DNA from: an uncultured Fibrobacterota bacterium
GTDB lineage: Bacteria > Fibrobacterota > Chitinivibrionia > Chitinivibrionales > FEN-1185
DNA: 64,000 bases
Reading direction: 5' to 3'
Assembly: GCA_963753345.1 (NCBI GenBank)
Contig: CAVWBU010000031.1
Span: 32,001 to 96,000, forward strand
The first letter of the stretch is position 1; the number at the start of each line of letters is the position of its first letter. The position numbers and the translations under genes were made by a program. The notes under the pieces are model-generated. The model had not been told where the DNA came from. It saw only the letters and a list, made by a program, of their open reading frames with translations, and did no database searches. Of this stretch, positions 3,001 through 21,304 are shown piece after piece.

Positions 3001-6000
3001 TGCCCAGGGCATTTTCCAGCAGGTGGGTTCGCCGGCCTGGAACCAGATCAAGTACATCAGGGTCTGGTGGGGCAATTTCAAGGGCGCAAACAGGACGAGC
3101 AGGAACGTGGTCCAGTTCGCCCGCTGGCAGTTTGTGGGAAACCAGTGGCTCGAAACGCCGATTGTCAATGCGGATTCCTCGTCGGAAACCAAACTCCAGG
3201 TTTCCACGGTGAACACCGACGATAACCTGGGCTACTACGTTCCTCCGCCGGGCGTGTACCGGCAGCCGGACGACAAGGGAAATCCCGCGCGGGAATCCTC
3301 TCTGGACCTTGCGTACAGGAATATCACGCCCGGCACGGTTGCGCTCGTGCGGCGGAGCCTTGCGTTCCAGCCGCTCAATCTTTCCAATTACAACGACATC
3401 TCGCTCATGGTCCACGGCGACACCGCGCGCGCCGGGTTCTGGTTCTTCTTCCGGTTCGGCGCCGACGACTCCACCTACTACGAGGTGCGCTCGCCGGTTG
3501 ACAAGGGGGGGCCTGGGGTGGATGGGTGGAAGGCCCTTGACGTCCGGCTCAAGGAATTGTCGGACCTGAAGCTCTTGTACCAGATCAACAACGGCGACAC
3601 GGGCGCGATCAACACGAGCGTCCAGTCGGGCAACGAGATCCTGTCGATACGGGCGCCCCGGGGGCGGTTTCCGACGTTTTCCAACGTGACCTTTATGGCG
3701 CTGGGCGTCTCCCGCGATTCGTTCGGGCTTCAGTCAAGCTGGCAGGGCGAACTGTGGGTTGACGAAATGAAAGCGAACGGCGTCAGGCCGCTCGACGGAT
3801 GGGCCGGCCGCGTATATCTCTCCACGAAATGGGCCGATTTTCTTAACCTTTCCGTGGGGCTCGACTACCAGGACGGCGATTTCCGGCGCATGACCGACGC
3901 CACCACGGGACTCGGCAACTCCACGCTGTCGGCGAATTTCAGCATCGACGGAAAGCTGAGCAAGTTCCTGCCCGACCGGTGGACCGTCTCCGTTCCCCTG
4001 GGAATGCGCATCCAGGAATCGATTGCCCGGCCGGAACTCGTGCCGAGCTCCGACATCTACCTGCTGCACAAGAACGGCTCCCCGGACGGCCTCCTCGACA
4101 TGTACAAAGACGCCGTCAACATGTTTCTCGACCGCCGCGTGCTTTCGCCCGACACCACCGCGTCGCGGCACTACCAGACCCTGTCGTCGCAGCGGGACTG
4201 GTGGACCGGGTACGACAAGAAGGGCAATTCGCCGAATCCTTTTGTCAATCTGCTGCTCGAACGGCTTGCCGTGGACTTTTCGGCCTCCCACCGGACCACC
4301 TCAACCGCCCAGGGACAGTCCACGCCGGGCGGCGAGGACAGGCTCGACCTGGACACGCTCGATACGTACCACGGCACGCTCAAGTACAATCTCACCCCGA
4401 CGCTTGAGCCCAAGTATTACAAATTCAAACCGTTCGACAAGAGCAAGATCCTGTGGCTCCCCGAGCAGATAAAGAACTACGAATTCTCCTATCTTCCCAC
4501 GACCCTCACCTTCGATCTGGCCGAGGTGACCTATTCCAAGGAAACCATGATCAAGGCCGACATTCCCGGCGAGACGAAGCTCAAGAAACTCGAACTCGAC
4601 CACCGGATGAACCTCGTGTTCGACCCCATCAACATCCTCGATTTCTCGTACAACCTGGCCATAGGCAGGAAGCTCGACAACCAGTTGACCAACGCGAATG
4701 TGAACTCCTATGCGGGCGCAGTCTCGTTTCTCGATAACTACATCGCCAAGAGGGATTCGGTGTGGAAAAAGTACATGATCCTGTACGACGAGCTTTCGCG
4801 CACCCAGGCCACGGGCATCAGGTTCGACCCGACGTTTCTGGACTGGCTGAGCGACAAGTTCGACTACTCGGCCAACTACCGCCAGAACGCCAACAGCAGG
4901 ACCGGCGACTCCACCCATTATCAGAACCTCGGCGTGGACCGGACGTTCCATTTGTCAAGCACCCTCACGCTTGCGGCACTGTTCAAGAAGCTGGCCGGCG
5001 GGTTCGCCTCGTTCAAGTCGATGGCGGCGGTGTTCAATTCGATTTCGGCGGGGATCACCAAGATAAATTTCAACAGCGTCACCTTCGACTACAGCGCCAA
5101 GTCGTCGCTGCGCAACGACAACATGGAAACGGGCCTGCTGGCGGACAGCGGCATAGGGCTGGGGAAGTTTTATCAGTACCAGGTCGGGCTGTCGGGCGCC
5201 AATGCCTGGGACATTGTCACCGGAAACATGAACGACCGCGCCATGGGCGGCATGAGGTTCCGCAACACCGCCATCGGTCTCGAGCAGAACGACCAGCGGA
5301 CGTCCGACATGAACTACTCGCTGAGCACGAACTTCAACCTTCCGGACCCCGTGGACATCCAGTTCACCGGCATAAGCCTCGGCTGGAGCCGTTCGTACAT
5401 CGTGCGGCCCGACACGTCGTCGAGGGACACCACCTTCACCTGGCCCGACTTCACCGAAAGCGCCCGGTCGGGCATCCTCAACAAAATCACTTTTGTAAAG
5501 CAGTACATGCAGAGCGTGACCCTTTCGAACAAGTACAGCTTTCAGAAGAAGGTGCATAATACCGCCGCTTCGGGGACGATCCAGAAGACCGTGTCGGTCG
5601 CCAACACGTTTTCACCGCTTGTCGGCGTGGAGGGGACCCTCAAGAAGTGGCCCGTGAGCCTCACGTATTCCTGGGACTACGGGATAAAGACCGATTCGAG
5701 CGGAAGCACGGGAACCGACAATCTCTCAAAAACCACCGACAACGGCCATAAAGCGGGCATCAAGTACGAGATCAGCAAGGCGTCCGGAACCAACCAGATC
5801 AAGTTCCTGATGTGGAAAATACCGATTGTGGGCAGGCTTGTCACCGGCGCCGAAGGCGAGTACCATACCACAACGCTCGACTCACGGTCGGGCGGAACAA
5901 GCAACTCCAGCGTCACCTCCTCCTTGACCGTCACCCCGCACGTGTCCTACGATTTTACCGACAATATCACGGGCGAGTTCCACTACAGCGGGTCGCAGAA

Positions 6001-6070
6001 AAAGGCCCCAAACCAAACAACGACATCACATATATTTGCATTGTCGGTCGAAATACGCTTCAACCCCTGA
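1..6070 (+). CDS. sprA: SprA/Sov-like large outer-membrane protein (type IX secretion translocon family), 5'-truncated by the window edge, apparent frameshift near 1380
   Basis: Frame open from base 1 to ~1380, continuing in ORF 1220..6070. SprA-like motifs DYTIDYQMG, AYVDDFEG, WAGIM, TEDLNSDG, GELWVDE; beta-strand-rich C terminus. Confidence 0.7.
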
Positions 6071-6085
6071 TCGCGCCGGAACATC

Positions 6086-7624
6086 ATGCCGAAAAAAATC
6101 CTGTTTACCGCCACGCCCACGGAAAAACGCGCCGCGCTTCTGGAAAACGACCGCGTGGTGGAGCTTGTGGTGGAACGGCCCGACAGCCTCAGGTTCGTGG
6201 GCAATATCTACCGCGGCAAAATCGTCTCGATCCTCCCCGGCATTCAGGCCGCGTTCGTGGACATCGGACTGGAAAAGGCCGCGTTCCTCCATGCTTCCGA
6301 CGTGGACCCTTCGCTGCTCCTCGAAGAGGCCGATTCGCTTGCCGAACGGTACATGGACCAGGGCAAGAGCAGCCGCAGGAAGGTTATAAGAATTCCCATA
6401 GAGAAAGTGCTCGAGGAAGGCCAGGAGATCCTCGTGCAGGTGATGAAGGAGCCCATCGGCACCAAGGGCGCGAAGGTCACCACGCAGATCAGCCTTGCCG
6501 GCCGGTTCCTCGTGCTGGTCCCCGACGCCGACTTCATCGGCGTGTCGAAAAAAACCAGCGACGACAAAAAGCGCCTCAAGCTCAAGAAACTCATCGCCGC
6601 GCTCAAGCCGCGCGGCGTGGGCTTTATCGTGCGCACCATAGGCCTGCAGGTTGCCGAACCGGAATTCGTCAAGGAGATGCAGTCGCTTATTGACAAATGG
6701 CGAAAGGCGCAGGAGGAGGCGCTTTCCGGCTCCGCGCCCAAGCTTGTCTACCGGGAAATGGGCATTACCACCCGGGTAATCCGCGACCTCTTTTCCGACG
6801 AGGTGCCGGAAGTCTACGTCGATCAGGACGACGATTTCACCGAGATCCAGTCGTACCTGCGGTCGGTTTCGCCGGACCTCTGCGGCAGGGTGGTGCATTA
6901 CAAGGACAAAACGCCGCTTTTTGACAAATACAATATCGAGAAGGACCTCGAACTGTCGCTCAAGCGCAAGGTGTGGCTCAGAAACGGCGGCTACATCCTC
7001 TTCGACCATGCCGAGGCGCTCCTGGCCATCGACGTCAACACGGGCCGCAACGTGGGCAAATCGAACCTTGAAGAGACGATATTCAAGACGAACCTCGAAG
7101 CGGCGCACGAGATCGCGCGACAGTTCCGGCTGCGCGACATCGGCGGCATCATCGTCATCGATTTCATCGACATGCAGAAGGCCGACCACCGCAGGAAGAT
7201 CGAGGACGAGATGCGGCGGCTCCTGCGGAACGATCCCTCGGCGACGGCCATCACTACGCTTTCAAAGTTCGGCCTCATGGAAATCACGCGCAAGCGCGTG
7301 AGGCCCGAGCTCCAGGAACTCTACACCGACGTGTGCGGCGTGTGCAACGGGCTGGGATGGGTCTTTTCGCCGGCCACCGTAACGGCCCGCATCGACCGGT
7401 GGCTCAACCGCGCCGATTCCCACGACACCCCGCGCGAGCTCAATCTTGCGGTGAACCCGGCCGTTGCCGCGTACCTCAGGCGCGAAAACAGCCAGATGCA
7501 AAGAAAGCTCGAGCAGGAACACAACTTCAGGCTGAGCGTCATCGAAGACGACGCCCTCGACCAGGACGACTACGATTTCTACCCCAAAGGCGGGACAAAG
7601 CCGATTACCGCCAAATATGTTTAG
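6086..7624 (+). CDS. rng: Rne/Rng family ribonuclease (RNase G-like, 512 aa)
   Basis: GNIYRGK, AAFVDIG, IDVNTG, LRDIGGIIVIDFIDM, CxxCxG motif. Confidence 0.9.
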   Translation: MPKKILFTATPTEKRAALLENDRVVELVVERPDSLRFVGNIYRGKIVSILPGIQAAFVDIGLEKAAFLHASDVDPSLLLEEADSLAERYMDQGKSSRRKVIRIPIEKVLEEGQEILVQVMKEPIGTKGAKVTTQISLAGRFLVLVPDADFIGVSKKTSDDKKRLKLKKLIAALKPRGVGFIVRTIGLQVAEPEFVKEMQSLIDKWRKAQEEALSGSAPKLVYREMGITTRVIRDLFSDEVPEVYVDQDDDFTEIQSYLRSVSPDLCGRVVHYKDKTPLFDKYNIEKDLELSLKRKVWLRNGGYILFDHAEALLAIDVNTGRNVGKSNLEETIFKTNLEAAHEIARQFRLRDIGGIIVIDFIDMQKADHRRKIEDEMRRLLRNDPSATAITTLSKFGLMEITRKRVRPELQELYTDVCGVCNGLGWVFSPATVTARIDRWLNRADSHDTPRELNLAVNPAVAAYLRRENSQMQRKLEQEHNFRLSVIEDDALDQDDYDFYPKGGTKPITAKYV

Positions 7625-7660
7625 CAATTAAATCTCCTTCTTTTCATTAGTCAAGACTTC

Positions 7661-8151
7661 TGGTGGGGGCACCGCTTCGCGTTTCCCCCTGGCCCCAAGC
7701 CTCCTCGCCCTCCGGGCTGCGGGGTCTCGGGGCACACCCCCTCCTGCGAAGGGGCGCGCGATCGCGCTCGACTTGCGCTCGCGCGGCGTCGCCCGTTCAT
7801 GCTTCGCACCCTTCGGGCGCGCTTTGCGCGTGGTCTCCGCGCCTCTGGCGCTCCGGCTCGCAACGCAACCGCAGCGGTATGCCGCTTCGCGGCGATAGTG
7901 CATTCGGGCACAATCATCTTTGTTAATTTTCGTATGTCAATAATCTGCGAACATCCGAGCAAGCGCTTGTCCATTGCGCGTGCGTTAGGCCGGACTGGAG
8001 GCCACGCTGGAGCGCGGTGCTGCCTGACCACGGCCCGCAGGGCCCTCGTGGCAGGCAGCCCGAGGCCGAAGGCCGAGACCGTAAGGAGGGCCGACCCCGG
8101 TTATGTAGGGGCGTAGCGCGCTACACTCCTCCATAACCGGGGAAACGCCCA
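7661..8151 (+). repeat. Composite intergenic element: module A' (7661-~7895, containing module E 7795-7857) + module C (~7975-8151)
   Basis: Starts TGGTGGGGGCACCGCTTCGCGTTTCCCCCT and ends GGGGAAACGCCCA. A' matches the reverse complement of 51365-51522. Confidence 0.85.
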
Positions 8152-8184
8152 TTTTATTTGTTAGCTTGTCTAGCTTATCTAGTA

Positions 8185-8214
8185 TTGACTCGATTTCAGC
8201 TTGGAATGTATATT
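8185..8214 (+). promoter_or_regulatory. Possible sigma70 promoter for rplU-rpmA
   Basis: TTGACT-N18-TATATT upstream of AGGAG and the ATG at 8240. Confidence 0.4.
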
Positions 8215-8239
8215 GAAAGGCCTTCAAAGGAGTCGATTC

Positions 8240-8551
8240 ATGTTTTCGATTGTCGAACAGGACGGTTTTCAGTTCAAGGTGTCGCAGGGGGATACCATTC
8301 TCGTGCCCAGGATGAGCGCGGAAAAGGGGAGCGAAATAGCCCTCGAGAAAGTCCTCATGATCGGCGAGGGCGGCACCGTAAAGATCGGTTCACCCACCGT
8401 GAGCGGCGCAGTTGTCAAGGCAAAGGTCGTGGACCACGTGAAGGGCGAGAAGATTTTCATCATGAAGAAGAAACGCAGAAAGAACTACAAGAAGAGGACC
8501 GGGCACCGGCAGCAGCACACCGCGCTGCAGATTCTTTCGATAACCGCCTGA
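8240..8551 (+). CDS. rplU: 50S ribosomal protein L21
   Basis: [14 protein letters not shown]...[24 protein letters not shown] before the ATG at 8240. Confidence 0.97.
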
Positions 8552-8585
8552 CAAGGCGTCGCATCCGAAGAAAAAGGAACGTATC

Positions 8586-8840
8586 ATGGCACATAAAAAG
8601 GGCGGCGGCAGCAGCGTTAACGGACGGGACAGCAATCCTCAGTATCTCGGCGTCAAGAAATACGGCGGCGAAAAAGCGATCGCCGGAAACATTTTGGTCC
8701 GCCAGAAGGGCACGGTGATTCACCCGGGCCGCAACGTTGGCAAGGGCAAGGACGACACGCTGTTCGCGCTTATCGACGGCGTGGTCCAGTTCACCGTCGG
8801 CGCGAACGACCGCAAGAAAGTGCATATTCTTCCCGCTTAG
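8586..8840 (+). CDS. rpmA: 50S ribosomal protein L27
   Basis: [16 protein letters not shown]...GNILVRQKG; follows rplU. Confidence 0.98.
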
Positions 8841-8882
8841 CACAGCTTCCAAGTAACAGCTTCCCCAAGAATTCCAATGCAC

Positions 8883-9419
8883 GGGGAAAGTTTACCCCCT
8901 CGCTCCGGCAAAGCTCAACAGTTCTCGGGAGCTTCACCCCCGAACCCCGACCTGCTTTCTTTCCGCAGCGAAAGAAAGTAGGCAAAGAACGCCGCGCCTG
9001 CAGCGCCGCCTGATCCCTCGGCCGTCGGGCCGCTCGTGAACTCGCCCGGCAAAAAGCATCCGTCAAGAAATTTGCCCCGTAAATTCAAGTCCATTTGTCA
9101 ATACCAGACCAGCCGGGCTCGGACAGCACGAGCGGCCAAGTAACCCGCCCGTCCTGTTGGGCGGGTTAGCGCCGATGGCCTCAGGGTCGGCGCTGATGGC
9201 GCAGGAAAAAAAAGGCCAGTTCTTCGAACTTGCGCAAGCCGTTATTGACAATTGGGCAATGTCCTTCTGCCCTGCGTTAGGCAGGACTGGAAAAATGGTC
9301 CCGCTTGAGGCGGGATGCCGCCCGGACCCGGCCCTGTGGGCCATAGGGCCGAGGCGGCCCGAGGCCGAAGGCCGAGACCGGAAGGACGGCCGACCCGAGC
9401 ATGGCGAGGGGAACGCCCA
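8883..9419 (+). repeat. Composite element: A head stub (8883-8909) + module D (~8910-9205) + module C (~9266-9419)
   Basis: Similar to 16128-16573 and to the reverse complement of 39738-40200; ends GGGGAACGCCCA. Confidence 0.85.
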
Positions 9420-9426
9420 AATTTAT

Positions 9427-10653
9427 TTATATATTTGTATTTCTATTTCGAAACAATAGCAGGTCTACTAGATACTGTGCCTTTTTGTAAAACGGTGTGT
9501 TGCGCCTTTTCTGGCCCGACATCCACTTGCTCCACGTGATATACGCGGTCATGGCGAAGCAGCCCGCCACGAAGAACATGATGCAGACGATTGAACGCTT
9601 GGGCCTGGTCTTTTTCTGCGGCGGCTGGGCGTACTCGAGCGCCTGGACGGCGGGCACGTCGTTCGATTCGGAGAATTTCGCCTGTTCGAACAGCTGAAGA
9701 ACGAATTCGTACAGCGATTCCTGGATCTTGACGTCCCGCAACAGGTACCCGTACTTCACCGATTTGGCCGGCGCGTCCTTGAGCGCAATGATGAGGTTCC
9801 CGCCGCCGGCAGCCATGTATTTCCCGATTTCCCTCCCGATGACTGCTTTCTGTTTCTGAAGCTCGGCGATCCGCTGGTTGCCGGAGCTGCCGTACTGGCT
9901 CTGCAGCTGGCTTATCTCAAGGTCGAGCGCCATTTTCTGCGCCTCGAACTGGGCGAGCGCCTCGACCGAGGATTTGGTCTGGTGTTCAAGGTCGATATAG
10001 TTGTTTTTGGTCTGGAATTCGGTGAGCCTCTGCGCGGCCGTGTCGAGGTCCTGCCTGATGAGGGCGAGCCGCTCCTCGAAAAAGACCCTCGAATTCCGCG
10101 CGCTCTCCTTTGCCAAGCAGTAGGTTATGGTGTCGAGTTCGAGCAGCATGAAGTTGGCGATGTCGGCGGCCATGCCCGGGCTCGAATCGGTCACCGCGAC
10201 CTCGATGTTGCCATAGTCGTTTTCAACGATTTTCGTGTTCCTGTGGAACGCCTTGAGAAGGTCTTCAATATAGTATTTCTTCATTTTGTTGAACCCGTAA
10301 TGGCGGACAAGGTCGAACCGGCGCAGCACGATCTCCGCCATGCGACGGCTTTCCAGAACGCTCAGAAAGTTGTCCGCATCGCTGCCGCCGCCAAGGTCCA
10401 TTGACTTGAGAATGCCGGAAACCGGAAGCTCCTTGGAAATCAGGGACCCGAGGCCGGGCATTTTCGGCGCAGGTTTCATGATGACGGCGGTCGCGGTGTA
10501 GTACCGGGGCATCAGAAGGCTTATCACAAGACCGGCCACGCAGAAAGCAACGACGCCGGCGACAAAGAGCCATTTCCGCTCAACCAGCACGATGAGCAGG
10601 TCGAGCAGGCCGGGACGGCCGGAATTTTCCATGGATGTGTTCTGCGTTTGCAT
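9427..10653 (-). CDS. Wzz/GumC-type polysaccharide chain-length determinant
   Basis: N- and C-terminal TM segments, central coiled coil, PPQKKTRPKR motif before the last TM. Confidence 0.8.
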   Translation of the reverse strand: MQTQNTSMENSGRPGLLDLLIVLVERKWLFVAGVVAFCVAGLVISLLMPRYYTATAVIMKPAPKMPGLGSLISKELPVSGILKSMDLGGGSDADNFLSVLESRRMAEIVLRRFDLVRHYGFNKMKKYYIEDLLKAFHRNTKIVENDYGNIEVAVTDSSPGMAADIANFMLLELDTITYCLAKESARNSRVFFEERLALIRQDLDTAAQRLTEFQTKNNYIDLEHQTKSSVEALAQFEAQKMALDLEISQLQSQYGSSGNQRIAELQKQKAVIGREIGKYMAAGGGNLIIALKDAPAKSVKYGYLLRDVKIQESLYEFVLQLFEQAKFSESNDVPAVQALEYAQPPQKKTRPKRSIVCIMFFVAGCFAMTAYITWSKWMSGQKRRNTPFYKKAQYLVDLLLFRNRNTNI

Positions 10654-10699
10654 GCTAAAAAAATATGTTATGACCGAAAGCCAATAAAAAATATATAGA

Positions 10700-11110
10700 T
10701 GGGGGAAGCCTCCCCCTCGCTTCAGCCCTCGCCTTCACTCGGTCTTCCGCTACCCCCTCCTGGGTAGCCGCCTTGACAAAGCAGATTCAAGACCATGCAT
10801 TGTTGTGGCGGCACCCACGAAGAGCGGTTGAAAAGTTGAAACGTTGAATAGTTGAACCGTTGAAAAGTGGAAAATGAAAAAAAAGAAATCCAACGGATTT
10901 ATTGCGAATGCTGGTGGCGCGAGAACAAGTAGTTGACAAAACACAATCCCTCTGCCGCGCGTTAGGTGGACCGGAGGGTGAGCGAGAGCGAATTGCCGGC
11001 CGACCCCGGCCGTAGGCCATCGGGGCGGTCCGGCAACGAGGCGAATAGCCGAGCCCGCAGGGAGACCGACCCCAGTGAGAGCCGCATGGCTCTCGCTGGG
11101 GTAACGCCCA
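10700..11110 (+). repeat. Composite element: module A (10700-~10825) + AGTTGAA-type heptamer run (~10828-10875) + module C (~10950-11110)
   Basis: TGGGGGAAGCCTCCCCCTCGC...GGCGGCACCCACG; ends GGGGTAACGCCCA. Confidence 0.9.
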
Positions 11111-11152
11111 ATATTATAAATAGTAGTACTCCATTGAGTATTTTTTATAATA

Positions 11153-12010
11153 ATGAAAATTACCTTCCTCGGCACCGGCACCTCGCACGGCGTGCCGTCC
11201 ATCGATTGCATGCTCCAGGGGTTCCGGTCGTGCCCGAAGGACGTGTGCAGGCGTTCCTTGACCGACGCGAAACACGCCCGCACCCGCTCGTCCATTCTTG
11301 CCGAGTACAACGGGAAGCGCGTGCTGGTCGATGTCTCCCCGGATTTCAGGCAGCAGGCGCTCCGGGAGAAAATTCCCGGCATCGACGCCGTGCTGATCAC
11401 GCACTGCCACGCCGACCATATCGGCGGCGTGCCGGATATTCGCTCCTACACGGCCCGGCGTCCGGAACCGCTCGAGTTCTACGGCTCGGAGGAGAGCATG
11501 GCCGCCATCCGCGCGTTTTTCCCCTATATATTCGACCCGGACGCGTTTTTCGGCGGCGGCATTCCGAAGATCGCGACAAAGGCCGTGACCGGAGCATTCG
11601 GCCTATTCGGAGCAACCGTGACGCCGGTCCCGGTGGAGCATGGCCGCCTGCGCGGCTGCCTGGGCTACCGCATTGACAACATGGCATACATCCCGGACGT
11701 CAAGGCGCTTCCGCGGGAGTCGCGGCCGTCCCTTGCGGGCCTGGACACGCTGGTGCTCAACTGCCTGCGGGAGACGCGGGACCATGCGAGCCACCTGGTG
11801 CTGGCCCAGAGCGTGGCGCTCGCCCGCGAACTCGCGCCGCGGCAATGCTATTTTATCCATATGAGCCACGATATCGACTATGAGACCGACGGAGCCAAGC
11901 TTGATAAGTGGATGGAATTTGCACCGGCACCTCGCACGGCGTGCCGTCCATCGATTGCATGCTCCAGGGGTTCCGGTCGTGCCCGAAGGACGTGTGCAGG
12001 CGTTCCTTGA
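11153..12010 (+). CDS. MBL-fold metallo-hydrolase (PhnP/YycJ-like), copy 1; native C terminus replaced by a frameshifted tail at the duplication junction
   Basis: LGTGTSHGVP, THCHADH zinc motif, HMSH. Confidence 0.85.
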   Translation: MKITFLGTGTSHGVPSIDCMLQGFRSCPKDVCRRSLTDAKHARTRSSILAEYNGKRVLVDVSPDFRQQALREKIPGIDAVLITHCHADHIGGVPDIRSYTARRPEPLEFYGSEESMAAIRAFFPYIFDPDAFFGGGIPKIATKAVTGAFGLFGATVTPVPVEHGRLRGCLGYRIDNMAYIPDVKALPRESRPSLAGLDTLVLNCLRETRDHASHLVLAQSVALARELAPRQCYFIHMSHDIDYETDGAKLDKWMEFAPAPRTACRPSIACSRGSGRARRTCAGVP

Positions 12011-12671
12011 CCGACGCGAAACACGCCCGCACCCGCTCGTCCATTCTTGCCGAGTACAACGGGAAGCGCGTGCTGGTCGATGTCTCCCCGGATTTTAGGC
12101 AGCAGGCGCTCCGGGAGAAAATTCCCGGCATCGACGCCGTGCTGATCACGCACTGCCACGCCGACCATATCGGCGGCGTGCCGGATATTCGCTCCTACAC
12201 GGCCCGGCGTCCGGAACCGCTCGAGTTCTACGGCTCGGAGGAGAGCATGGCCGCCATCCGCGCGTTTTTCCCCTATATATTCGACCCGGACGCGTTTTTC
12301 GGCGGCGGCATTCCGAAGATCGCGACAAAGGCCGTGACCGGAGCATTCGGCCTATTCGGAGCAACCGTGACGCCGGTCCCGGTGGAGCATGGCCGCCTGC
12401 GCGGCTGCCTGGGCTACCGCATTGACAACATGGCATACATCCCGGACGTCAAGGCGCTTCCGCGGGAGTCGCGGCCGTCCCTTGCGGGCCTGGACACGCT
12501 GGTGCTCAACTGCCTGCGGGAGACGCGGGACCATGCGAGCCACCTGGTGCTGGCCCAGAGCGTGGCGCTCGCCCGCGAACTCGCGCCGCGGCAATGCTAT
12601 TTTATCCATATGAGCCACGATATCGACTATGAGACCGACGGAGCCAAGCTTGATAAGTGGATGGAATTTGC
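11172..12671 (+). repeat. 749-bp direct tandem duplication (11172-11922 / 11921-12671)
   Basis: Copies identical by eye except C at 11347 vs T at 12096; GC microhomology at the junction. Confidence 0.95.
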
Positions 12672-12699
12672 GTATGATGGGTTGAAAATAAATATCTAG
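11908..12699 (+). CDS. MBL-fold metallo-hydrolase, copy 2, lacking the native first ~7 residues
   Basis: Identical to copy 1 from TGTSHG onward; carries the native end AYDGLKINI. Confidence 0.6.
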   Translation: MDGICTGTSHGVPSIDCMLQGFRSCPKDVCRRSLTDAKHARTRSSILAEYNGKRVLVDVSPDFRQQALREKIPGIDAVLITHCHADHIGGVPDIRSYTARRPEPLEFYGSEESMAAIRAFFPYIFDPDAFFGGGIPKIATKAVTGAFGLFGATVTPVPVEHGRLRGCLGYRIDNMAYIPDVKALPRESRPSLAGLDTLVLNCLRETRDHASHLVLAQSVALARELAPRQCYFIHMSHDIDYETDGAKLDKWMEFAYDGLKINI

Positions 12700-12711
12700 A
12701 AGAGTTTACAA

Positions 12712-13152
12712 GTGGGGGAAGTTTCCCCCTCGCTCCGGCCCTGCGGTCCTCCGCTACCCCCTCCTGGGTGCACCCCAAGTGGACGCGGCTGCAGAACCTG
12801 ACACATGTGCGGGGGCACCCACGAAAAGCTGTTGAAAAGTTGGACCGTTGAATAATTAAAAAAGTTGAGTGGTTGAAGAGCTGAGAATTCAAAATATAAA
12901 ATTGGCTGATTTGTTTGGGTCACCAATTGGCGCGAGAAGAAGCAATTGACTTAATAGATTCCCTCTGCCGCGCGCCAGGCCGGACTGGAAGGTGCGCTAT
13001 AGCGCATTGCCGGCTGACCGCGGCTCGAAGAGCCTTTGCGGCAGGCGGCAACGAGGCCGAAGGGCCGAGCCTGGAAGGAGGGCCGACGCTGCGAAGCAGC
13101 GGGGCGCCCAAGTGTTTATTTTGGTTTATTGACGAAGGCGGGGGAACGCCCA
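12712..13152 (+). repeat. Composite element: module A + heptamer run + module C (~12960-13110) + second C tail (13134-13152)
   Basis: GTGGGGGAAGTTTCCCCCTCGC start; GGGGCGCCCA end, followed by GAAGGCGGGGGAACGCCCA. Confidence 0.9.
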
Positions 13153-13187
13153 TATTCTTTACTAAGTGTTATGGAGGCTGGATAAGC

Positions 13188-13880
13188 ATGGAAAAGTACA
13201 AGCAGGAATTCATCGAATTCATGGTGCGTTCGAAGGCGTTGACTTTCGGGAGCTTCGTCACCAAGAGCGGCCGCACCACGCCGTACTTTGTCAACACGGG
13301 GAACTACACCACCGGCGGGCAGATGGCCAGGCTCGGCGAGTTCTACGCCGAGGCGATCCGCTCCAAGATCGGGGACGATTTCAACGTTCTGTTCGGTCCG
13401 GCGTACAAGGGGATCCCGCTCGCCGTGACCGCCGCGGCCGCACTGTACCGCCTGCACGGATTCGACGTTCCGGTCTGCTACAACCGGAAGGAGGCCAAGG
13501 ACCACGGCGAGGGGGGAAGCATTATCGGCCACCGGCCCGCCGCGGGCGACCGGGTGGTGATCGTCGACGACGTGATAACCGCCGGCACTTCGGTGAGGGA
13601 GTCCGCGGCGCTCCTTACGGCCGTGCCGGGCGTGGTGCTCCGCGGCCTGGCGGTGTCTGTTGACAGAATGGAAAAAGGCCCGTCCGGCGCAAGCGCGCTT
13701 TTTGAGGCGTCCCGCGCCTACGGCATGGACGCGATCGCCGTTGTTTCCATCGAGGACATTGTGTCGCACCTGCACGGCCGGACCGTTGATGGAACAGTGG
13801 TGATCGACGATGCCATGAAAGCGAAGATAGACGCTTACCGCGCCGAGTACGGCGCGGGGAAAAGAAAGTTGAGAAGTTGA
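13188..13880 (+). CDS. pyrE: Orotate phosphoribosyltransferase
   Basis: KSGRTTPYF, FGPAYKGIP, RKEAKDHGEGG, VVIVDDVITAGTS. Confidence 0.97.
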   Translation: MEKYKQEFIEFMVRSKALTFGSFVTKSGRTTPYFVNTGNYTTGGQMARLGEFYAEAIRSKIGDDFNVLFGPAYKGIPLAVTAAAALYRLHGFDVPVCYNRKEAKDHGEGGSIIGHRPAAGDRVVIVDDVITAGTSVRESAALLTAVPGVVLRGLAVSVDRMEKGPSGASALFEASRAYGMDAIAVVSIEDIVSHLHGRTVDGTVVIDDAMKAKIDAYRAEYGAGKRKLRS

Positions 13881-14040
13881 GTGGTTGAGGAGTTGAGAAG
13901 AAAATCAAGAATAAAAATATGGCCTATGAACCCATGAACCCTCTAATTCATCCACCCATGAACGCATTTACGCATCCACGCACCAACGCCCTAACGCACC
14001 CACGCATCCACGCATCCACGCATTCTCGCATCCAGGCACT
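13865..14040 (+). repeat. AGTTGAG heptamer run (13865-~13900) followed by an ACGCATCC-type octamer run (~13955-14040)
   Basis: Directly visible degenerate tandem units; the octamer run abuts the next ATG. Confidence 0.85.
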
Positions 14041-14622
14041 ATGAAGCGCGTCAACGAAAACCCACCGGCGAGGTTCCCTGAAAGGCCGATAGGCCAGGCC
14101 GGGGCGCCGTGGTGGATCGCAAAGGTGAGGCCGCGCCAGGAAAAAGCGCTCGCGTTCGATCTTGTCCGCAACAACATCGAATACTACCTGCCGATGGTCG
14201 TGCACGTCACGCGGCGCAGGGACAATAACAAACCGCGAAAGTCGGTGCTGCCGCTGTTTCCGGGGTACATCAGTTTTTGCGGCGGCGATCCCGAAGCCAG
14301 GGGCATTTACAGGACCGGAAGGGTCGTTTCCGTTATTCCCATAAAGTACCAGGAACGGTTCGTGCGCGAGCTTACCCAGGTCTATCAGGCGATTGAAACG
14401 GGCGTGGCCCTCGATCCGGTCGCCGCGCAGTATTCTCCCGGCGCCAGGGTCGCTGTTGTGACCGGGCCGCTTCGCGGTCTAACGGGCGTTATTGCAAGGA
14501 TCCAGGACGCAGACCGGCTCGTGCTTTCGGTGACAGGACTTGGCCACGCGTCCATGGTGATAGACGCCGCAATGGTAAAGCCCGTGGATGATCCGCACAA
14601 GCACCAAACCGAAATTCCCTGA
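14041..14622 (+). CDS. NusG-family specialised antiterminator (UpxY/RfaH/LoaP-like)
   Basis: WWIAKVRPRQEK, PLFPGYI NGN motif, C-terminal KOW VAVVTGPLRGLTGVI; upstream of polysaccharide genes. Confidence 0.85.
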   Translation: MKRVNENPPARFPERPIGQAGAPWWIAKVRPRQEKALAFDLVRNNIEYYLPMVVHVTRRRDNNKPRKSVLPLFPGYISFCGGDPEARGIYRTGRVVSVIPIKYQERFVRELTQVYQAIETGVALDPVAAQYSPGARVAVVTGPLRGLTGVIARIQDADRLVLSVTGLGHASMVIDAAMVKPVDDPHKHQTEIP

Positions 14623-14663
14623 CGCAAGGCACTGATTTTACGATTGAATCCCACAGCGAGTGC

Positions 14664-14756
14664 ATTCCCTGGAGCTTGCTCCGGGGTTAGCGAGCGACTA
14701 TAAGTATGTTTTCTTTCCATAGGGATGGAAGATTCCCCGCAGCTTGCTGCGGGGTT
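14664..14756. repeat. Doublet of 25-nt palindromic units ATTCCCNGNAGCTTGCTNCGGGGTT (14664-14688, 14732-14756)
   Basis: Two direct copies 68 nt apart, each a hairpin. Confidence 0.75.
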
Positions 14757-14898
14757 CTTCAAAAGAGACTGGATCGAATGTATTATTTTATATTGGTTGC
14801 GGTAACAGGTTGAGACAAAATGCGGTGATACCGATCTTTGGAAGCGGGCTTTTTTCAAAGTACCGCCGACGGGGGTGAGGTGTACCTGGAGAAATAAT

Positions 14899-15357
14899 AG
14901 TTGAGGAGTTGAGAGGTTGAGAAGTTGAGCAGTTGAAAAAAGAAGTTGAAACGTTGCTGGTTAGAGAAGGTTGTTCATGTGGGGGAAGTATCCCCCTCGC
15001 TTCAGCCCAGCCTTCGGCCGGTCTTCCGCTACCCCCTCTTGGGTGGCCCCCAAGTAAGTTGATTTGCGAGAAAGATGCATCGGTTAGGGGGCACCCATGG
15101 AGAGTAGTGGTATATAAAGAAGTTGAAAAGTTGAGAACCCCAAAAAACCTTGACTGATTTACTGCAGATGCCGGCTGGCGCGAGAAAAAGTAATTCACGG
15201 AATATGATCCTTCTACCGCGCGCCAGGCCGGACTGGAGGTCCCGCCAGAGCGGGATGCCGCCCGGACCCGGCCCTGTGGGCCATAGGGCCGTGGCGGCCC
15301 GAGGCCGGAGGCCGAGACCGGAAGGAGGGCCGCCGCCGCAAAGCGGCGGGGCGCCCA
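14899..15357 (+). repeat. Heptamer run (14899-~14955) + module A (14979-~15100) + module C (~15210-15357)
   Basis: GTGGGGGAAGTATCCCCCTCGC; ends GGGGCGCCCA. Confidence 0.9.
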
Positions 15358-15402
15358 AGTATTATTGATGTTTGTCTAAAATCTTTATCTTTGGATAACC
15401 CC

Positions 15403-16104
15403 ATGATCCTCTCTATTATTATCCCCTGCTACAACGAGAAGGGAACCATCCTCGCGCTGCTTGACAGAGTGCTTAAGGCGCCGCTGCCCGCCGGGGTTGA
15501 CCGCGAGGTGGTCGTGGTGGACGACTTCTCGGTCGACGGCACGCGCGACGCGCTCGCGGCAGTTTCGGACACGCGCGTGCGCGTCCTTTTGCACGACAGA
15601 AACCGCGGCAAGGGCGCCGCGCTGCGCACCGGATTCGCCGCTGCCACGGGCGGCATCGTGGTGGTGCAGGACGCGGACCTCGAGTACAACCCGGAGGAGT
15701 ACGCCAAACTGCTCAAGCCGATTCTGGACGGCAGGGCCGACGTCGTGTACGGCTCGCGGTTCATAACCACCGGCGAGCGCCGCGTGCTGTATTACTTCCA
15801 CTACATGGGAAACAGGTTTCTCACCTTTGCCTCCAACGTCTTCACGAACATGAACCTGAGCGACATGGAGACCTGCTACAAAATGTTCCGGAAGGAGATA
15901 CTTGACAAAATCCGCATCCGTGAAAACCGTTTCGGGTTCGAGCCGGAGATAACGGCCAAAATCGCGAAGCTCAAGTGCCGCGTGTACGAGGTGGGAATTT
16001 CATATTCCGGCCGCACCTATGAGGAGGGCAAGAAGATAGGGTTCCGGGACGGGCTGCGCGCGCTGTGGTGCATTGTGAAGTACAATGTGATTTCTCGGAA
16101 GTAA
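15403..16104 (+). CDS. Glycosyltransferase family 2 (DPM1-like)
   Basis: SIIIPCYNE, VVDDFSVDGT, NRGKG, QDADLEY, DMETCYK. Confidence 0.92.
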   Translation: MILSIIIPCYNEKGTILALLDRVLKAPLPAGVDREVVVVDDFSVDGTRDALAAVSDTRVRVLLHDRNRGKGAALRTGFAAATGGIVVVQDADLEYNPEEYAKLLKPILDGRADVVYGSRFITTGERRVLYYFHYMGNRFLTFASNVFTNMNLSDMETCYKMFRKEILDKIRIRENRFGFEPEITAKIAKLKCRVYEVGISYSGRTYEEGKKIGFRDGLRALWCIVKYNVISRK

Positions 16105-16127
16105 ATAGTATGATGCTTTTCCTTGCA

Positions 16128-16573
16128 CCGACAAAGCTCAACAGTTCTCGGGGGCTTCACCCCCGAACCCCGACCAAGGGGTGGTCAGCAGCAACCACCC
16201 CTTGGAACCCCATGCCGCGCCTGCAGCGCCGCCTGGTCCCTCGGCCTTCGGGCCGCTCGTGAACTCACCCGGCAGGACAAACCTAAAGCTTGATCAAATA
16301 TGCCGGGCTCGGACAGCACGAGCGGCCAATCCTTCGACCTCAGGGGCGTCGCTGATGGCGGCAGATACAAACAATGCAGCTCAAATTCGCGCAAGCGGTT
16401 TTCTACACTTTGGCGATGTTCTTCTGCCCAGCGTTAGGTGGACCGGAGTGGTCCCGCCGTAGCGGGATTGCCGGCCGACCCCTCCCCGAAGGGGACTCGG
16501 GGCGGTCCGGCAACGAGGCCGAACGGCCGAGCCCGTAGGGAGACCGACCCGGCCGGAGGCCGGGGAACGCCCA
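16128..16573 (+). repeat. Composite element: module D + module C (~16421-16573)
   Basis: Similar to 8910-9419. Confidence 0.85.
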
Positions 16574-16592
16574 CTCCATCTTGTAGATCATA

Positions 16593-17240
16593 ATGAAAAC
16601 GAAAATCCGTATAACGTTGGGAATCCTTCTCCTGATTTGCATTACGCTGCTGGTACTAGCCTATCGACACCTCGGCATGTGGCTCGTGGCGTCGGACCCG
16701 CTGCCGCCGTCGCTCGACGCGTACTTTACCTTTGCAAGCGACAACGAGCGCATCATCTACTCCAAGCACCTTTACAAAAGATACCCCGCCGCGCTGTGGG
16801 TGCTGAGCTACCCGCGGAAACGGATACTCGTTCCGCTCCGCAAGGCGGGCCTCGACACGTCGAGGATCGTCGTGATAGACACCTGCGCCAACACATCGTC
16901 GGAGGTGGCCTGCATCGTGAACTGGGCCAACAGCGCGCTGCGCGACAGCGCCTCGGCCCCGGCGCGCAAGCTTGCGGCGAAAACCAAATTTTCTCCCGGG
17001 AGCACGCTCAGGATAGGTCTGGTGAGTTCGCCCTACCACATGCGCCGCATCAAAGTGCTCTTTTCGGGCAGGCGACCGGACACAAGGGCCGAGTTCCTGT
17101 TTCTGCCCGTTCCGTTCTGGCTATGCGGCATGAAGAAGAGCGATTACGAAACGTGGTGGAAAAACAAGGCGCTCGCGCCCGTGGTGTGGGTGGAGGTTGA
17201 GAAGATTGCGTATCTTTTGTGGTGCGGGCTATGGGGGTAA
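16593..17240 (+). CDS. YdcF/DUF218-like membrane-anchored protein
   Basis: N-terminal TM, NTxxE motif, LVSSPYHMRR. Confidence 0.65.
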   Translation: MKTKIRITLGILLLICITLLVLAYRHLGMWLVASDPLPPSLDAYFTFASDNERIIYSKHLYKRYPAALWVLSYPRKRILVPLRKAGLDTSRIVVIDTCANTSSEVACIVNWANSALRDSASAPARKLAAKTKFSPGSTLRIGLVSSPYHMRRIKVLFSGRRPDTRAEFLFLPVPFWLCGMKKSDYETWWKNKALAPVVWVEVEKIAYLLWCGLWG

Positions 17241-17261
17241 GATTTCTAATAATATATGAAT

Positions 17262-17711
17262 CTGGGCGCCCCGCCGCTTCACAAGATAGAAGAGTTTCTT
17301 GTGGGGGAAGTATCCCCCTCGCTCCGGCCGCCTTTGGCGTCCTGCGCTACCCCCTCTTGGGTGACCCCCTTGACGGAGCGGTTGTTGAACCACACACTTG
17401 TGTGGGGGCACCCACGGAGAATAGTTGAGAGGTTGAGAAGTTGAGGGGGTTGAGAAGGCACGGAAAAAATACTGATTGATGTTTAGAGTATTCCGATTGG
17501 CGAGAATAAATAGTTGACTTATAGTATTTCTTCTACCGCGCGTTAGGGGCGACTGGAAAAATGGTCCCGCTTGAGGCGGGATGCCGCCCGGACTCTTAAT
17601 TGTAGATTTTAGATTGATGATTGCAGATTGATAAAAAGACCCGATTGCTTTCTTTGTTTTGCAATCTACATTCTACAATCTGCATTCTACAATTAAGTGG
17701 GGGAACGCCCA
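17262..17711 (+). repeat. Inverted C-tail stub (17262-17280) + module A (17301-~17416) + heptamer run + module C interrupted by an inverted-heptamer insert (17595-17697)
   Basis: C 5' half 17530-17594 matches 9266-9327; C tail GGGGGAACGCCCA at 17699-17711. Confidence 0.85.
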
Positions 17712-17749
17712 ATTTTCTTGTCTTTAACAAGAATTGGAGAAAACCAAAA

Positions 17750-18523
17750 ATGCCCAAGATTTTGAAAAGAAACAGATGTTATGGCTGGAAACCGGATTTT
17801 CCCGACCATCGCGACGTGAAATTCTCCCTTGTGTACCGCGTGCCGGCGAAGCTGCCCGCAAAAACAGACCTGCGCGCAATCTGCCCGCCGGTGGAAGACC
17901 AGGGACAGCTCGGCAGCTGCACGGCCCACGCGCTCACCGGCGCGCTGGAGACGCTCGAAAACAAGGACAGATTACCGCTTGTCCAGATGAGCAGGCTCTT
18001 TGTCTACTACAACGAGCGAAGCCTGGAGCATACCGTTTCGCAGGACGCGGGCGCCATGATCCGCGACGGCATCAAGACCCTTGCGAAACAGGGCTGCTGC
18101 GCGGAAAGCAAGTGGCCCTATGTTATATCGAAATTCGCGTCCAAGCCAGGGGCGGCCTGCTTCAAGGACGGCCTGGAACACCAGATCACGTCGTACCAGC
18201 GCATAGCCACCGTTGACCAGATGCGTGCGTGCCTCGCCGCGGGCTTTCCCTTTGTGTTCGGGTTCACCGTGTACGAGTCGTTCGAATCGCAGGCCGTGGC
18301 GAAAACCGGCACGGTGAACATGCCCAAGAAGACCGAGGCTACGCTCGGCGGCCACGCCGTGCTCGCCGTGGGCTACGACGACAAGGCAAAGCGCTTTACG
18401 GTGAGGAATTCCTGGGGACCGGGGTGGGGAATCAAGGGGTATTTCACTATTCCTTATGCTTACCTTGCGAGTCGGGACCTGGCAGATGATTTCTGGACGA
18501 TAAGAAGAGGAGAGAGAATATAA
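17750..18523 (+). CDS. Papain-like (C1A) cysteine peptidase
   Basis: DQGQLGSCTA (catalytic Cys), GGHAV (His), VRNSWG (Asn). Confidence 0.93.
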   Translation: MPKILKRNRCYGWKPDFPDHRDVKFSLVYRVPAKLPAKTDLRAICPPVEDQGQLGSCTAHALTGALETLENKDRLPLVQMSRLFVYYNERSLEHTVSQDAGAMIRDGIKTLAKQGCCAESKWPYVISKFASKPGAACFKDGLEHQITSYQRIATVDQMRACLAAGFPFVFGFTVYESFESQAVAKTGTVNMPKKTEATLGGHAVLAVGYDDKAKRFTVRNSWGPGWGIKGYFTIPYAYLASRDLADDFWTIRRGERI

Positions 18524-18545
18524 AATTGATAGAAAGTAGATTTGG

Positions 18546-18850
18546 TGGGGGAAGTATCCCCCTCGCTTCAGCCCTCGCTTTTGCTCGGTCTTCCGGCGCT
18601 TTCCGCCCTTGCTGTTGGGCGGGCGCTCCCCCTCCCGGGTGGCCGCCTTGACAATGCAGCTGCAAGACCATACATTGTTGTGGCGGCACCCACGAGGAGC
18701 AGCTGAAAAGTTGAATAGTTGAAAATGAAAAAGTTGAGGAGTTGAGAAGACAAGAGTTGAAGAGTTGAATAGTTTAATAGTTGAAGAGCAAAAAGGTTTA
18801 GAAGTTGAGCAGTTGAGAAGTTGAGAAGAGAAAAAGTTGAAAAGTTCAAG
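18546..18850 (+). repeat. Module A (18546-~18700) + long AGTTGA(A/G) heptamer array (~18700-18850)
   Basis: GTGGGGGAAGTATCCCCCTCGC...GGCGGCACCCACG, then ~20 degenerate heptamers. Confidence 0.9.
18648..18676 (+). promoter_or_regulatory. Sigma70-like promoter inside module A
   Basis: TTGACA-N17-TACATT; related spacing in other A copies. Confidence 0.45.
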
Positions 18851-18889
18851 AAGAAGCCATAACTGATTTACGGAGACCGGTGAAATAAA

Positions 18890-20445: not shown

Positions 20446-20475
20446 AGATGATTACTTCTTTTGCAATGGTATAAT

Positions 20476-21303: not shown

Positions 21304-21304
21304 A

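Follow-up and report, generated by a model that had tools for sequence, protein, structure and literature searches.

A GC-rich interspersed repeat of Fibrobacterota with a seven-helix fold and compensatory base changes

The locus and its fold

The element described here, module C, was studied in a copy at 10950-11118 on the plus strand of a 64-kb stretch of DNA (64,000 nucleotides, in the following the window) from an uncultured Fibrobacterota bacterium of peat. This copy has a G+C content of 67%; its neighbours are a Wzz/GNVR chain-length gene on the minus strand (9427-10653) and an MBL-fold hydrolase gene on the plus strand that begins at 11153. Rich in G+C and non-coding, this interspersed repeat measures about 165 nt and has a defined seven-helix fold on one strand. 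In a preliminary description of the window, the base differences between its copies had been attributed to selection on a multi-junction fold instead of neutral decay of a repeat. This view is supported by the mosaic of helix versions among the copies, the association between pairing partners, tree-based null models, copies from distant genomes and rates of change. Judged from these comparisons of aligned copies, the fold rather than the sequence is what module C conserves.

The source genome comprises 4.52 Mb in 55 contigs with 56% G+C; its completeness is 94% and its contamination is given as 4.8%. Iterated nhmmer searches of the whole genome, seeded by the copy at 10950-11118, returned 411 profile matches, among them 260 of full length (139-237 nt, median 165). 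The G+C content of module C is 67-77%, and second-round matches were located on 49 of the 55 contigs. A covariance model, R1, was built from 13 copies of the window. It matched all 150 candidates scored in the source genome, corresponding to at least 150 copies, and 15 places in the window. Membership in an Rfam family was ruled out, since Rfam 15 gave no match at gathering score over the window. At the relaxed threshold of E <= 10, only chance-level matches to mir-3158 and sR52 (twice) appeared in 10680-11140, with 12.6-16.3 bits against cut-offs of 50-97. We found no account of the module C family in the literature on Chitinivibrionia repeats and structured interspersed repeats. Gene blocks on small contigs of the source genome (C44, C45, C46 and others) exist in three near-identical copies, probably as strain variants or through redundant assembly, so that a few of the about 400 module C copies may be counted more than once.

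The structure model was obtained with RNAalifold from a sequence-only MAFFT alignment of the 13 window copies. The consensus contains 41 pairs in seven helices, P1-P7. P1 (GCGTT/AACGC) closes the whole fold and P2 (GGY/RCC) closes a four-way junction with P3-P6, which is followed by P7. With a folding energy of -94.1 kcal/mol the plus strand of 10950-11118 is clearly separated from its shuffles (z = -5.14, 200 shuffles); the opposite strand reaches -86.2 kcal/mol (z = -3.19). The copy and its helices are as follows.

10950-11118, plus strand: module C copy under study, R1 match of 127.1 bits over model positions 1-170
10959-10963, plus strand: 5' arm of P1, GCGTT, paired with AACGC at 11103-11107 (RNAalifold)
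11103-11107, plus strand: 3' arm of P1, AACGC, partner of GCGTT at 10959-10963
10965-10967, plus strand: 5' arm of P2, GGT, paired with ACC at 11065-11067, closing the four-way junction
10977-10994, plus strand: P3 hairpin with a 4-nt loop; here degenerate, two inner pairs being G.A/A.G
10995-11034, plus strand: P4, a long three-part hairpin of GCCGG/CCGGC, CCCC/GGGG and GGCC-GTA-GGCC
11040-11050, plus strand: P5 hairpin GGC-GAATA-GCC, in fold and consensus structure
11054-11062, plus strand: P6 hairpin CCC-GCA-GGG, in the consensus structure
11070-11101, plus strand: P7 terminal hairpin of variable length, in fold and consensus structure

Covariation and the question of inheritance

For the pairing statistics, copies were drawn from the window and 40 further stretches of the genome and aligned to R1. 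Set A2 contains 130 copies (window and 20 loci) and set A3 contains 87 copies from 20 other loci, 217 in total. In these alignments, which are fitted to the model structure and therefore biased in its favour, standard pairs occupy 96.1% (A2) and 95.4% (A3) of the cells and 31 and 33 of the 41 pairs, respectively, have changed on both sides. In comparison, column shuffles left 82.2% and 80.9% of the cells paired, none of 500 shuffles reaching the observed value, and sliding the 3' partner by 1-3 columns reduced pairing to 36-48% (A2) and 33-44% (A3). Independent of any fit to the structure, double changes were already seen at 17 of the 41 pairs in the 13 sequences aligned with MAFFT only. The earlier statement that structure is kept over sequence thus holds for the larger sets as well.

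The closing helix had been described as GCGTT...AACGC in most copies and GCGCC...GGCGC in four. Both variable pairs of P1 are indeed U-A in 10 and C-G in 3 of the 13 MAFFT-aligned copies, and the copies beginning at 12963, 15211 and 57587 on the plus strand, together with a fourth at 50968-51199 on the minus strand, all carry GCGCC...GGCGC. An alignment-free count of the arms in 377 copies with a 5' start gave 219 copies with TT and only AA, and 88 with CC and only GG; the remainder consists of 16 copies with TT and no recognisable 3' end, 9 without a recognisable 5' arm and small mixed classes (CC with AA only: 3). In sets A2 and A3, 98.9-99.0% of the P1 cells are paired. The paired double change is therefore as described, but on the tree of the source genome it amounts to just one or two events.

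The remaining variation in the helices, too, agrees with the preliminary description. The third pair of P2, reported as GGT/ACC or GGC/GCC, is C-G in 83, U-A in 63 and G.A in 50 of the 217 copies, and the variants of the inner helices and tip stems are present as listed in the alignments of 13 and 217 copies. The loop types tabulated in the 217 copies are NNRA, GNA and GGAA. P3 has a loop of 4 nt in 202 copies, the P4c and P5 loops are C-GNA-G triloops in most cases, and C-GGAA-G is the commonest P6 loop (92 copies). The free length of the last hairpin is reflected in a P7 loop of 0 to 35 nt, falling into three size classes, and extra covarying pairs (columns 127:138 and 128:137) lengthen this helix.

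In some copies the P6 loop is enlarged by an additional hairpin of about 30 nt, or P4c by insertions of about 100 nt; the former, GACGACCCTTGGAAGCACCCGAAGGGGTG-like, occurs at 41544-41739 (minus strand) and in at least 10 other copies of the genome. In the copy at 50968-51199 (minus strand), P4-P6 are exchanged for a different GC-rich module (family D20), and P1 is still GCGCC/GGCGC. This GC-rich module is found at 7783-7859 and 50997-51073 with 82% identity between the two; at 7783-7859 it sits upstream of a complete module C copy, at 50968-51199 inside one. An additional outer helix, P0, formed by the A-rich linker and the T-rich 3' flank, was rejected, since the duplex energy of the own flanks (-6.85) gives no support when compared to permuted partners (-6.61 +/- 0.16; 146 copies).

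Differences that respect pairing could also arise with no selection on structure, if they were inherited from a few ancestral subfamilies or transferred in gene-conversion patches. The distribution of helix versions does not fit this origin. Each helix exists in two to four internally complementary versions that are combined almost freely among the copies, and 158 combinations of 16 variable pairs were counted in the 217 copies. Cramer's V was calculated over all variable columns of a merged alignment of 202 distinct copies and 159 columns. In this alignment 18 pairs show variation in both members, so that 36 paired columns are variable, and in 24 of them no other column is associated as strongly as the pairing partner (V 0.67-0.97). 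Columns 48:85 show a V of 0.90 versus at most 0.40 elsewhere, 60:70 a V of 0.92 versus 0.57, and 130:135 a V of 0.91 versus 0.47. The partner is often far better associated than the columns lying between, across tens of columns. Since a conversion patch that includes both arms would carry the intervening columns too, block inheritance cannot give such a partner-first pattern.

Phylogenetic correction was carried out with two self-written null models similar to R-scape, based on a FastTree tree, Fitch reconstruction, a G-test with average product correction and a threshold of E <= 0.05. Null 1 re-deals the substitutions of each branch to random columns with the same residue, as R-scape does, and null 2 preserves the number of changes per column. 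Significant covariation was obtained for 16 of the 41 pairs with null 1 and for 14 with null 2; among the 18 pairs varying on both sides, 16 pass null 1. Pairs 9-11 of P3 are significant under both nulls; the significant pairs of P4 are 17, 20, 23, 26, 27 and 28, whose partners rank first (V 0.69-0.93). Most of the non-significant pairs are near invariant and hence carry no information. The outcome named beforehand as a refutation, namely no covariation after phylogenetic correction and just two subfamilies, did not come true.

Copies from more distant genomes point in the same direction. In 23 copies, taken from 12 genomes that belong to other families of the order, 92.4% of the cells are paired, compared to 35-42% after sliding, so that in three separate copy sets pairing of 92-96% stands against 33-48%. 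Double changes were found at 36 of the 41 pairs and P1 is paired in 100% of its cells. One P1 pair occurs as U-A in 12, G-C in 5, C-G in 4 and A-U in 2 of these copies, and the P1 versions of other families include GCGCA/TGCGC, GGGTT/AACCC and GCGTG/CACGC, which brings the helix to at least five versions across families. On terminal branches, paired sites change at 0.031 per site, unpaired core sites at 0.070 and flanks at 0.159; the stems thus change at half the rate of the unpaired core.

Several observations weigh against selection on the fold, in addition to the bias of the fitted alignments. The P1 switch from TT/AA to CC/GG is associated with a pair in P7 and with a neighbouring column (V 0.85-0.91) and, with its one or two events in the source genome, P1 is well supported only after the other families are added. 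A large part of the column pairs that pass the nulls lies outside the structure (39 of 55 for null 1, 14 of 28 for null 2). These are chiefly neighbours on the same arm, as block inheritance would produce, and apparent extensions of P7, P2 and P4; their number is due to variation of helices as cassettes, which makes the nulls an imperfect model of this family. The nulls are moreover self-written, not the official R-scape, and a mosaic family breaks the assumption of a tree. Finally, the 103 double changes on terminal branches resemble swaps of ready-made helix versions more than fresh point mutations. Inheritance from subfamilies as the only explanation is nevertheless already contradicted by the results given above, to which the excess of G-U over A-C described next can be added, and we regard it as very improbable. 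Selection on the fold may act on propagation instead of on each resident copy.

The alignments also contain information about the strand that folds. Cells with G-U outnumber those with A-C by 397 to 53, and by 112 to 53 without two P3 pairs that contribute 285 of the G-U cells. G-U exceeds A-C at 19 pairs and the reverse is seen at 8; in the distant copies the ratio is 25 to 9. Among single changes on terminal branches 60 create G-U and 38 create A-C, although C>T and G>A, the changes behind them, are equally frequent at paired sites (96 and 94). In agreement with this, of 204 copies folded, 157 are more stable on the sense strand when RNA parameters are used and 187 when DNA parameters are used. 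Excess of G-U and stability of the sense strand assign the fold to the aligned strand, and by these sequence criteria RNA and single-stranded DNA both fit.

Genomic setting and turnover

Module C at 10950-11118 is part of a larger composite, whose upstream components are listed here.

10699-10844, plus strand: module A/B, a second folded repeat, which forms with array, linker and module C a composite of about 415 nt
10822-10880, plus strand: tandem 8-mer array, GTTGAAAA-like, upstream of module C (family D1)
10915-10958, plus strand: conserved 5' linker, TGGCGC..AGAA...TTGAC.GAATAGATTTC..CTGCC (family D11), present before most copies

Genome-wide, module A/B has 289 profile matches and the linker 179; the consensus of the latter from 208 copies is tgGcgc.agaaaaa..a.TTGACtgAatAgAtTtCctcTGCC. 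Upstream of 202 of 377 module C copies a module A/B lies on the same strand, at a distance of 62-233 nt (5th-95th percentile). Per 200 nt of upstream sequence, the array motif GTTGA is counted 1.92 times in sense, compared to 0.13 in antisense, 0.12 downstream and 0.34 in random intergenic windows. Throughout the genome it shows an 8-nt period with a peak at -120 to -80. Beyond the 3' end of module C a pyrimidine-rich tract follows, with a T-rich tract beginning about 5 nt past P1.

Arrays of this period are also present elsewhere. An insert of 640 nt at 45678-46316, which follows the stop codon of a Polysacc_synt_2 gene and precedes the start of a DUF218 gene, encodes a 133-amino-acid protein of the 23S_rRNA_IVP family (Pfam E 6.7e-34) and ends in a GTTGAGAA-type 8-mer array on the left and a reverse-complement array on the right. 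The closest relative is without the insert, and there the flanking genes abut (TGA, then ATG within 4 nt); the insert looks like a small cassette bounded by inverted 8-mer arrays. Thirteen in-register copies of a different 8-mer (AAGTGACA-like) are located at 21291-21434, after a gene ending at 21303, and two sister species contain inverted arrays of a third 8-mer (CACAGAGA) in the spacer between RNase G and rplU. In this genus, spacers seem in general to carry arrays of 8-nt period.

Genes were called with a crude self-made finder (3318 calls, 80% of the genome coding), and only 2 of the 260 full copies of module C lie inside called genes. The distance from the 3' end to the next gene has a median of 17-124 nt depending on context, and the 5' side is about 290-380 nt away from its neighbour. 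Convergent spacers hold 78 of 248 copies (31%) and make up 15% of the spacers. Of the copies in tandem spacers, 83 share the orientation of both genes and 44 have the opposite one; divergent spacers hold 43. Within unidirectional blocks (+/-3 kb) 58 copies are sense and 26 antisense. Altogether, 122 of the 248 copies face the 3' end of a gene and 126 face a start. Where two copies are at most 500 nt apart, 23 of 25 pairs are arranged head to head (divergent), usually with a gap of about 100 nt.

The other copies in the window are given below.

7973-8159, plus strand: module C copy with long P7, 145.7 bits, between RNase G and the rplU promoter
9265-9427, plus strand: module C copy, 162.7 bits
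12963-13118, plus strand: module C copy with P1 GCGCC/GGCGC, followed by TTGAC and a second 3'-end fragment at 13119-13160
15211-15365, plus strand: module C copy with P1 GCGCC/GGCGC, covariance-model match
16422-16581, plus strand: module C copy, 126.7 bits
17531-17719, plus strand: weak module C match, 32.8 bits, only the 5' third recognisable (profile positions 2-58 at 17532-17595)
39730-39898, minus strand: module C copy directly after the stop of a plus-strand glycosyltransferase gene
41544-41739, minus strand: module C copy with the extra hairpin of about 30 nt in the P6 loop, covariance-model match
43216-43385, minus strand: module C copy, 169.1 bits
47092-47261, minus strand: module C copy, 168 bits
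50968-51199, minus strand: module C copy with P4-P6 replaced and P1 GCGCC/GGCGC, 61.6 bits
56050-56206, minus strand: module C copy, 162.5 bits
57587-57741, plus strand: module C copy with P1 GCGCC/GGCGC, covariance-model match
60797-60968, plus strand: module C copy, nearest in sequence to the copy at 10950-11118

At least 14 of 107 copies of the GCGCC/GGCGC type possess a second 3' end of the GCGTT/AACGC type 25-45 nt downstream, as seen at 13119-13160 and 57742-57782, with a TTGAC box before several of them. The second end has the appearance of a leftover from an older copy or of a nested insertion.

The contents of the spacers with module C turn over quickly between species. Between RNase G and rplU, module C (7973-8159) is found in the source genome only; it is absent from this site in four congeneric species and in one further species of the family. 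The same spot contains a textbook terminator hairpin in one sister species and about 30 nt in the element-free species, and the rplU promoter TTGACT-N18-TATATT just downstream is kept in all compared species. The polysaccharide block at 38.4-47.3 kb is syntenic in five species. One of its spacers holds a minus-strand copy in the source genome and, in three other species, a plus-strand copy, module A/B only, and nothing, respectively. Even where three species have a copy at the same spot, these are different versions and not mutual nearest relatives, so that they cannot be treated as orthologues; the source-genome copy at this shared spot matches a copy on a different contig of its own genome with 98% identity over 150 nt.

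Module C was detected in four of five other species of the genus, the scored matches setting only a lower limit to the number of copies in each. One species of the genus with a 99%-complete genome gave no match, nor did the two other genera of the family. Within the order it occurs in 17 of 81 genomes, representing 6 of the 9 families, and outside the order in one genome among 151 sampled from the phylum. Contigs from four DNA runs over 6000-25999 end at repeats, and apparent joints between them are repeat-to-repeat artefacts, so that they showed no readable empty site. For 6000-15999, no run recorded as RNA was listed as containing the sequence, a result that carries no information on expression.

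Related repeats and possible explanations

Module C is inferred to be a structured interspersed repeat of the BOX, bcr1, REP or TwoAYGGAY kind. By analogy of architecture, the extended form of TwoAYGGAY (RF01731) in Pseudomonas (Pseudomonadota) is the closest likeness, with no sign of homology. According to its description, this form has tens to about 200 copies, hairpins on a basal stem and covariation, an oriented upstream array of 5-6-nt repeats, and 68% of its close pairs are divergent (bioRxiv 10.64898/2026.09.22.753630). Module C similarly combines multiple hairpins on a closing stem with an upstream 8-mer array and mostly divergent close pairs (23 of 25). Both also join other repeat modules and differ widely in copy number between relatives. 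Membership of module C in TwoAYGGAY was rejected, since no RF01731 match appeared even at E <= 10 and the loops are of the NNRA, GNA and GGAA types, whereas TwoAYGGAY consists of two hairpins on a shared stem, each with an AYGGAY loop. Module C further differs in belonging to another phylum and in having a four-way junction within the closing helix, about 400 copies and a unit of 8 instead of 5-6 nt.

Of the group A bcr repeats of the Bacillus cereus group, bcr1 measures about 155 bp and is intergenic, transcribed and strain-variable in position, with compensatory changes; it is regarded as a non-autonomous mobile element and is flanked by 5-bp direct repeats (PMC3184786). Length, intergenic location, variable positions and compensatory changes that keep a multi-stem fold are similar in module C. 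In contrast to bcr1, module C shows no target duplication; bcr1 consists of two independent stem-loops in AT-rich Firmicutes DNA, module C of seven helices with 67-77% G+C.

Pneumococcal BOX elements (boxA-boxB(n)-boxC) are modular and in excess between convergent genes, and are thought to exert a structural effect on co-transcribed genes. They also have terminal inverted repeats, target duplications, simple stems of 45-59 nt and about 100 copies, about half of the insertions being common to all strains and the mobilising enzyme uncertain (PMC3049150). Module C resembles them as a modular composite with a repeated middle part and enrichment between convergent genes; the terminal inverted repeats and target duplications of BOX were not seen in module C, in which inverted sequence at the ends is limited to the 5-bp arms of P1.

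A REP is one imperfect palindrome, about 20-40 nt long, that has a conserved head and is accompanied by a RAYT gene. REPs and BIMEs share with module C the GC-rich extragenic character, hundreds of positions at gene ends and outside genes, mosaics, inverted doublets and stem complementarity. Module C is about five times longer than a REP (median 165 nt) and multi-branched with seven helices, and no RAYT was found in the source genome. REPINs are doublets of REPs associated with RAYT transposases (PMC3116915).

Based on these sequence data, module C may be a non-autonomous element, selfish or half-domesticated, that acts through an RNA-level fold. Most copies would be made as RNA by read-through from the adjoining gene, and the folded RNA could form a compact block at transcript ends that serves protection, termination or insulation. 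Copies would spread and be homogenised by ectopic recombination or a trans-acting enzyme, and those with unpaired stems would be removed or fail to propagate. The RNA level is favoured because of the co-orientation bias, the purine-rich conserved junctions, the G.A pairs and the GGAA loop. Including its mechanism of spread, we consider this proposal about evenly poised between right and wrong.

A number of findings weigh against it. About a third of the copies are antisense to both neighbours, and four antisense copies follow each other within the apparently co-functional polysaccharide gene block at 38.4-47.3 kb, where read-through would not yield the folding strand. A terminator scan of 7500-19000 gave 16 sites versus 15.3 expected, none of them at the 3' end of module C, and a sigma-70-like TTGAYA-N16-18-TAnnnT within module B is present in 7 of 289 copies and is no family feature. 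As to the spread, the enzyme searches, which left out the integrase, DDE, IS110 and IS91 families, gave no match to the Y1 transposase (PF01797) in the 94%-complete source genome, no TnpB-type domain in the five genomes searched and no reverse transcriptase in the source genome; nor does the latter contain a protein family with more than three copies at >= 80% identity. No target-site duplication of the kind that flanks MITEs was recognised in 127 A/B-C composites, to which this test was confined because the 5' boundary of solo copies is undefined; the longest k-mers shared by their 15-nt flanks are distributed like those of shuffled partners. C-GNA-G triloops are very stable in single-stranded DNA as well, and since the strand asymmetry is at least as clear with DNA parameters, a fold at the DNA level fits almost as well.

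Module C could accordingly be imagined as single-stranded DNA that folds as the substrate of a structure-specific recombinase or transposase, in the style of REP/REPIN-RAYT, IS200/IS605 ends or integron attC sites, with no role as RNA; the covariation would in that case mirror the demands of the mobilising enzyme. Like these systems it needs the folding of one strand alone, the asymmetry being stronger with DNA parameters (187 of 204 copies) and C-GNA-G triloops being common. The orientation is only loosely tied to transcription and spacer contents turn over fast. The close pairs are head to head in 23 of 25 cases, similar to REPIN doublets (PMC3116915). A partner enzyme should then be expected. 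The search for PF01797 gave matches in 6 of 14 control genomes and, within the genus, in three of four further species examined, and the source genome with its hundreds of copies gave none, just as it has no gene above three copies; insertion sequences are, on the other hand, often missing from metagenome-assembled genomes. In the sister species the presence of Y1, TnpB-type and reverse transcriptase enzymes does not track module C. With respect to GC skew, 61% of module C is co-oriented compared to 58% of the genes, unlike replication-coupled single-strand transposition. Target duplications are lacking in the composites tested, and the four-way junction with its purine-rich joints is far more elaborate than known single-stranded DNA recombination sites. 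An attC reading in particular was prompted by a 5' GTTAGGC and by small unrelated genes each followed by a copy. The outer repeats of attC read 5'-RYYYAAC ... GTTRRRY-3', the reverse order of the module C arms, in which GTT comes first and AAC last on either strand (GCGTT...AACGC). In addition, the copies occur on 49 of 55 contigs, placed between housekeeping genes and with no single array. On arm order and scatter attC was rejected. An exclusively DNA-level role is considered unlikely.

Transcription need not depend on read-through if each copy or divergent doublet were its own small-RNA gene, with a promoter in the linker and perhaps a protein that binds the RNA and reads the 8-mer array too, something that may also apply to TwoAYGGAY RNAs. 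This would let antisense-placed copies be made as RNA, and the conserved linker with a TTGAC box at fixed distance, the pyrimidine-rich tract past the 3' end and the head-to-head doublets with constant gaps of about 100 nt, a layout of bidirectional promoters, are compatible with it. TwoAYGGAY is described with the same architecture of array, multiple hairpins and doublets (bioRxiv 10.64898/2026.09.22.753630). However, the TTGAC box has no -10 element within a suitable distance, although promoters of the type TTGACT-N18-TATATT exist in the lineage; the TTGAC itself looks like the final GTTGA unit of the array, the spacers of doublets are not conserved in sequence (two cases), and there is no terminator hairpin with a T run directly at the 3' end. 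We judge separate small-RNA genes to be decidedly improbable. The linker as a promoter of the sigma-70, sigma-54, extracytoplasmic function (ECF) or Bacteroidetes type was rejected, as no acceptable spacing was seen by eye in the linker consensus; module C as an intrinsic terminator was likewise rejected, for want of a hairpin with a direct T run at its 3' end. The promoter-like TTGACT-N18-TATATT at 8185-8214, upstream of rplU-rpmA, is conserved in five species, which indicates that the lineage uses ordinary sigma-70-type promoters. A riboswitch-like or attenuator leader acting on the downstream gene could explain the complex junction fold, and sense copies end at a median of 68 nt before the start codon where the upstream gene is co-oriented and 124 nt in divergent spacers. 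This is already contradicted by the genomic context: about 400 copies lie beside unrelated genes (MBL-fold hydrolase, glycosyltransferases, ribosomal proteins, peptidase), half of the copies face a stop codon, the copy at 7973-8159 is upstream of the conserved rplU promoter and hence outside a leader, and orthologous spacers of sister species are devoid of the element. A role as leader carries next to no probability.

Going beyond the RNA-level proposal, the composite of module C, array, linker and module A/B might be the Fibrobacterota counterpart of a class that includes TwoAYGGAY, in which fold and array would be recognised by a machinery for copying, exchange or processing of such elements. 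This putative machinery would belong to none of the RAYT, IS200/IS605, reverse transcriptase and DDE transposase systems, and the near-free shuffling of helix versions would be its product instead of that of ordinary gene conversion. Drawn from analogy, this extension is quite unlikely. The parallel to TwoAYGGAY, if real, would point towards a common, so far unrecognised mechanism by which the intergenic DNA of distant phyla is shaped.

Many bacteria contain structured interspersed repeats, most of them unexplained in function and spread. Module C is an unusually clean case with its hundreds of copies, covariation across families and a modular make-up whose short tandem array and divergent doublets recur in the unrelated TwoAYGGAY. 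It occupies a measurable share of a genome of which crude gene calls cover 80%, and short-read assemblies break at every copy. Addition of module C to RNA and repeat libraries would avoid its repeated rediscovery and its mis-annotation as open reading frames.

Two further observations concern genes near the copies. Downstream of the copy at 10950-11118, the stretches 11172-11471 and 11921-12220 are identical over 300 nt (100%) at a distance of 749 nt, so that the start of the MBL-fold gene is duplicated, either by a recent tandem duplication or by an assembly artefact. In the polysaccharide gene region, 14041-14622 encodes a NusG-domain paralogue of 193 amino acids, which presumably recalls the UpxY antiterminators of Bacteroides capsule loci.

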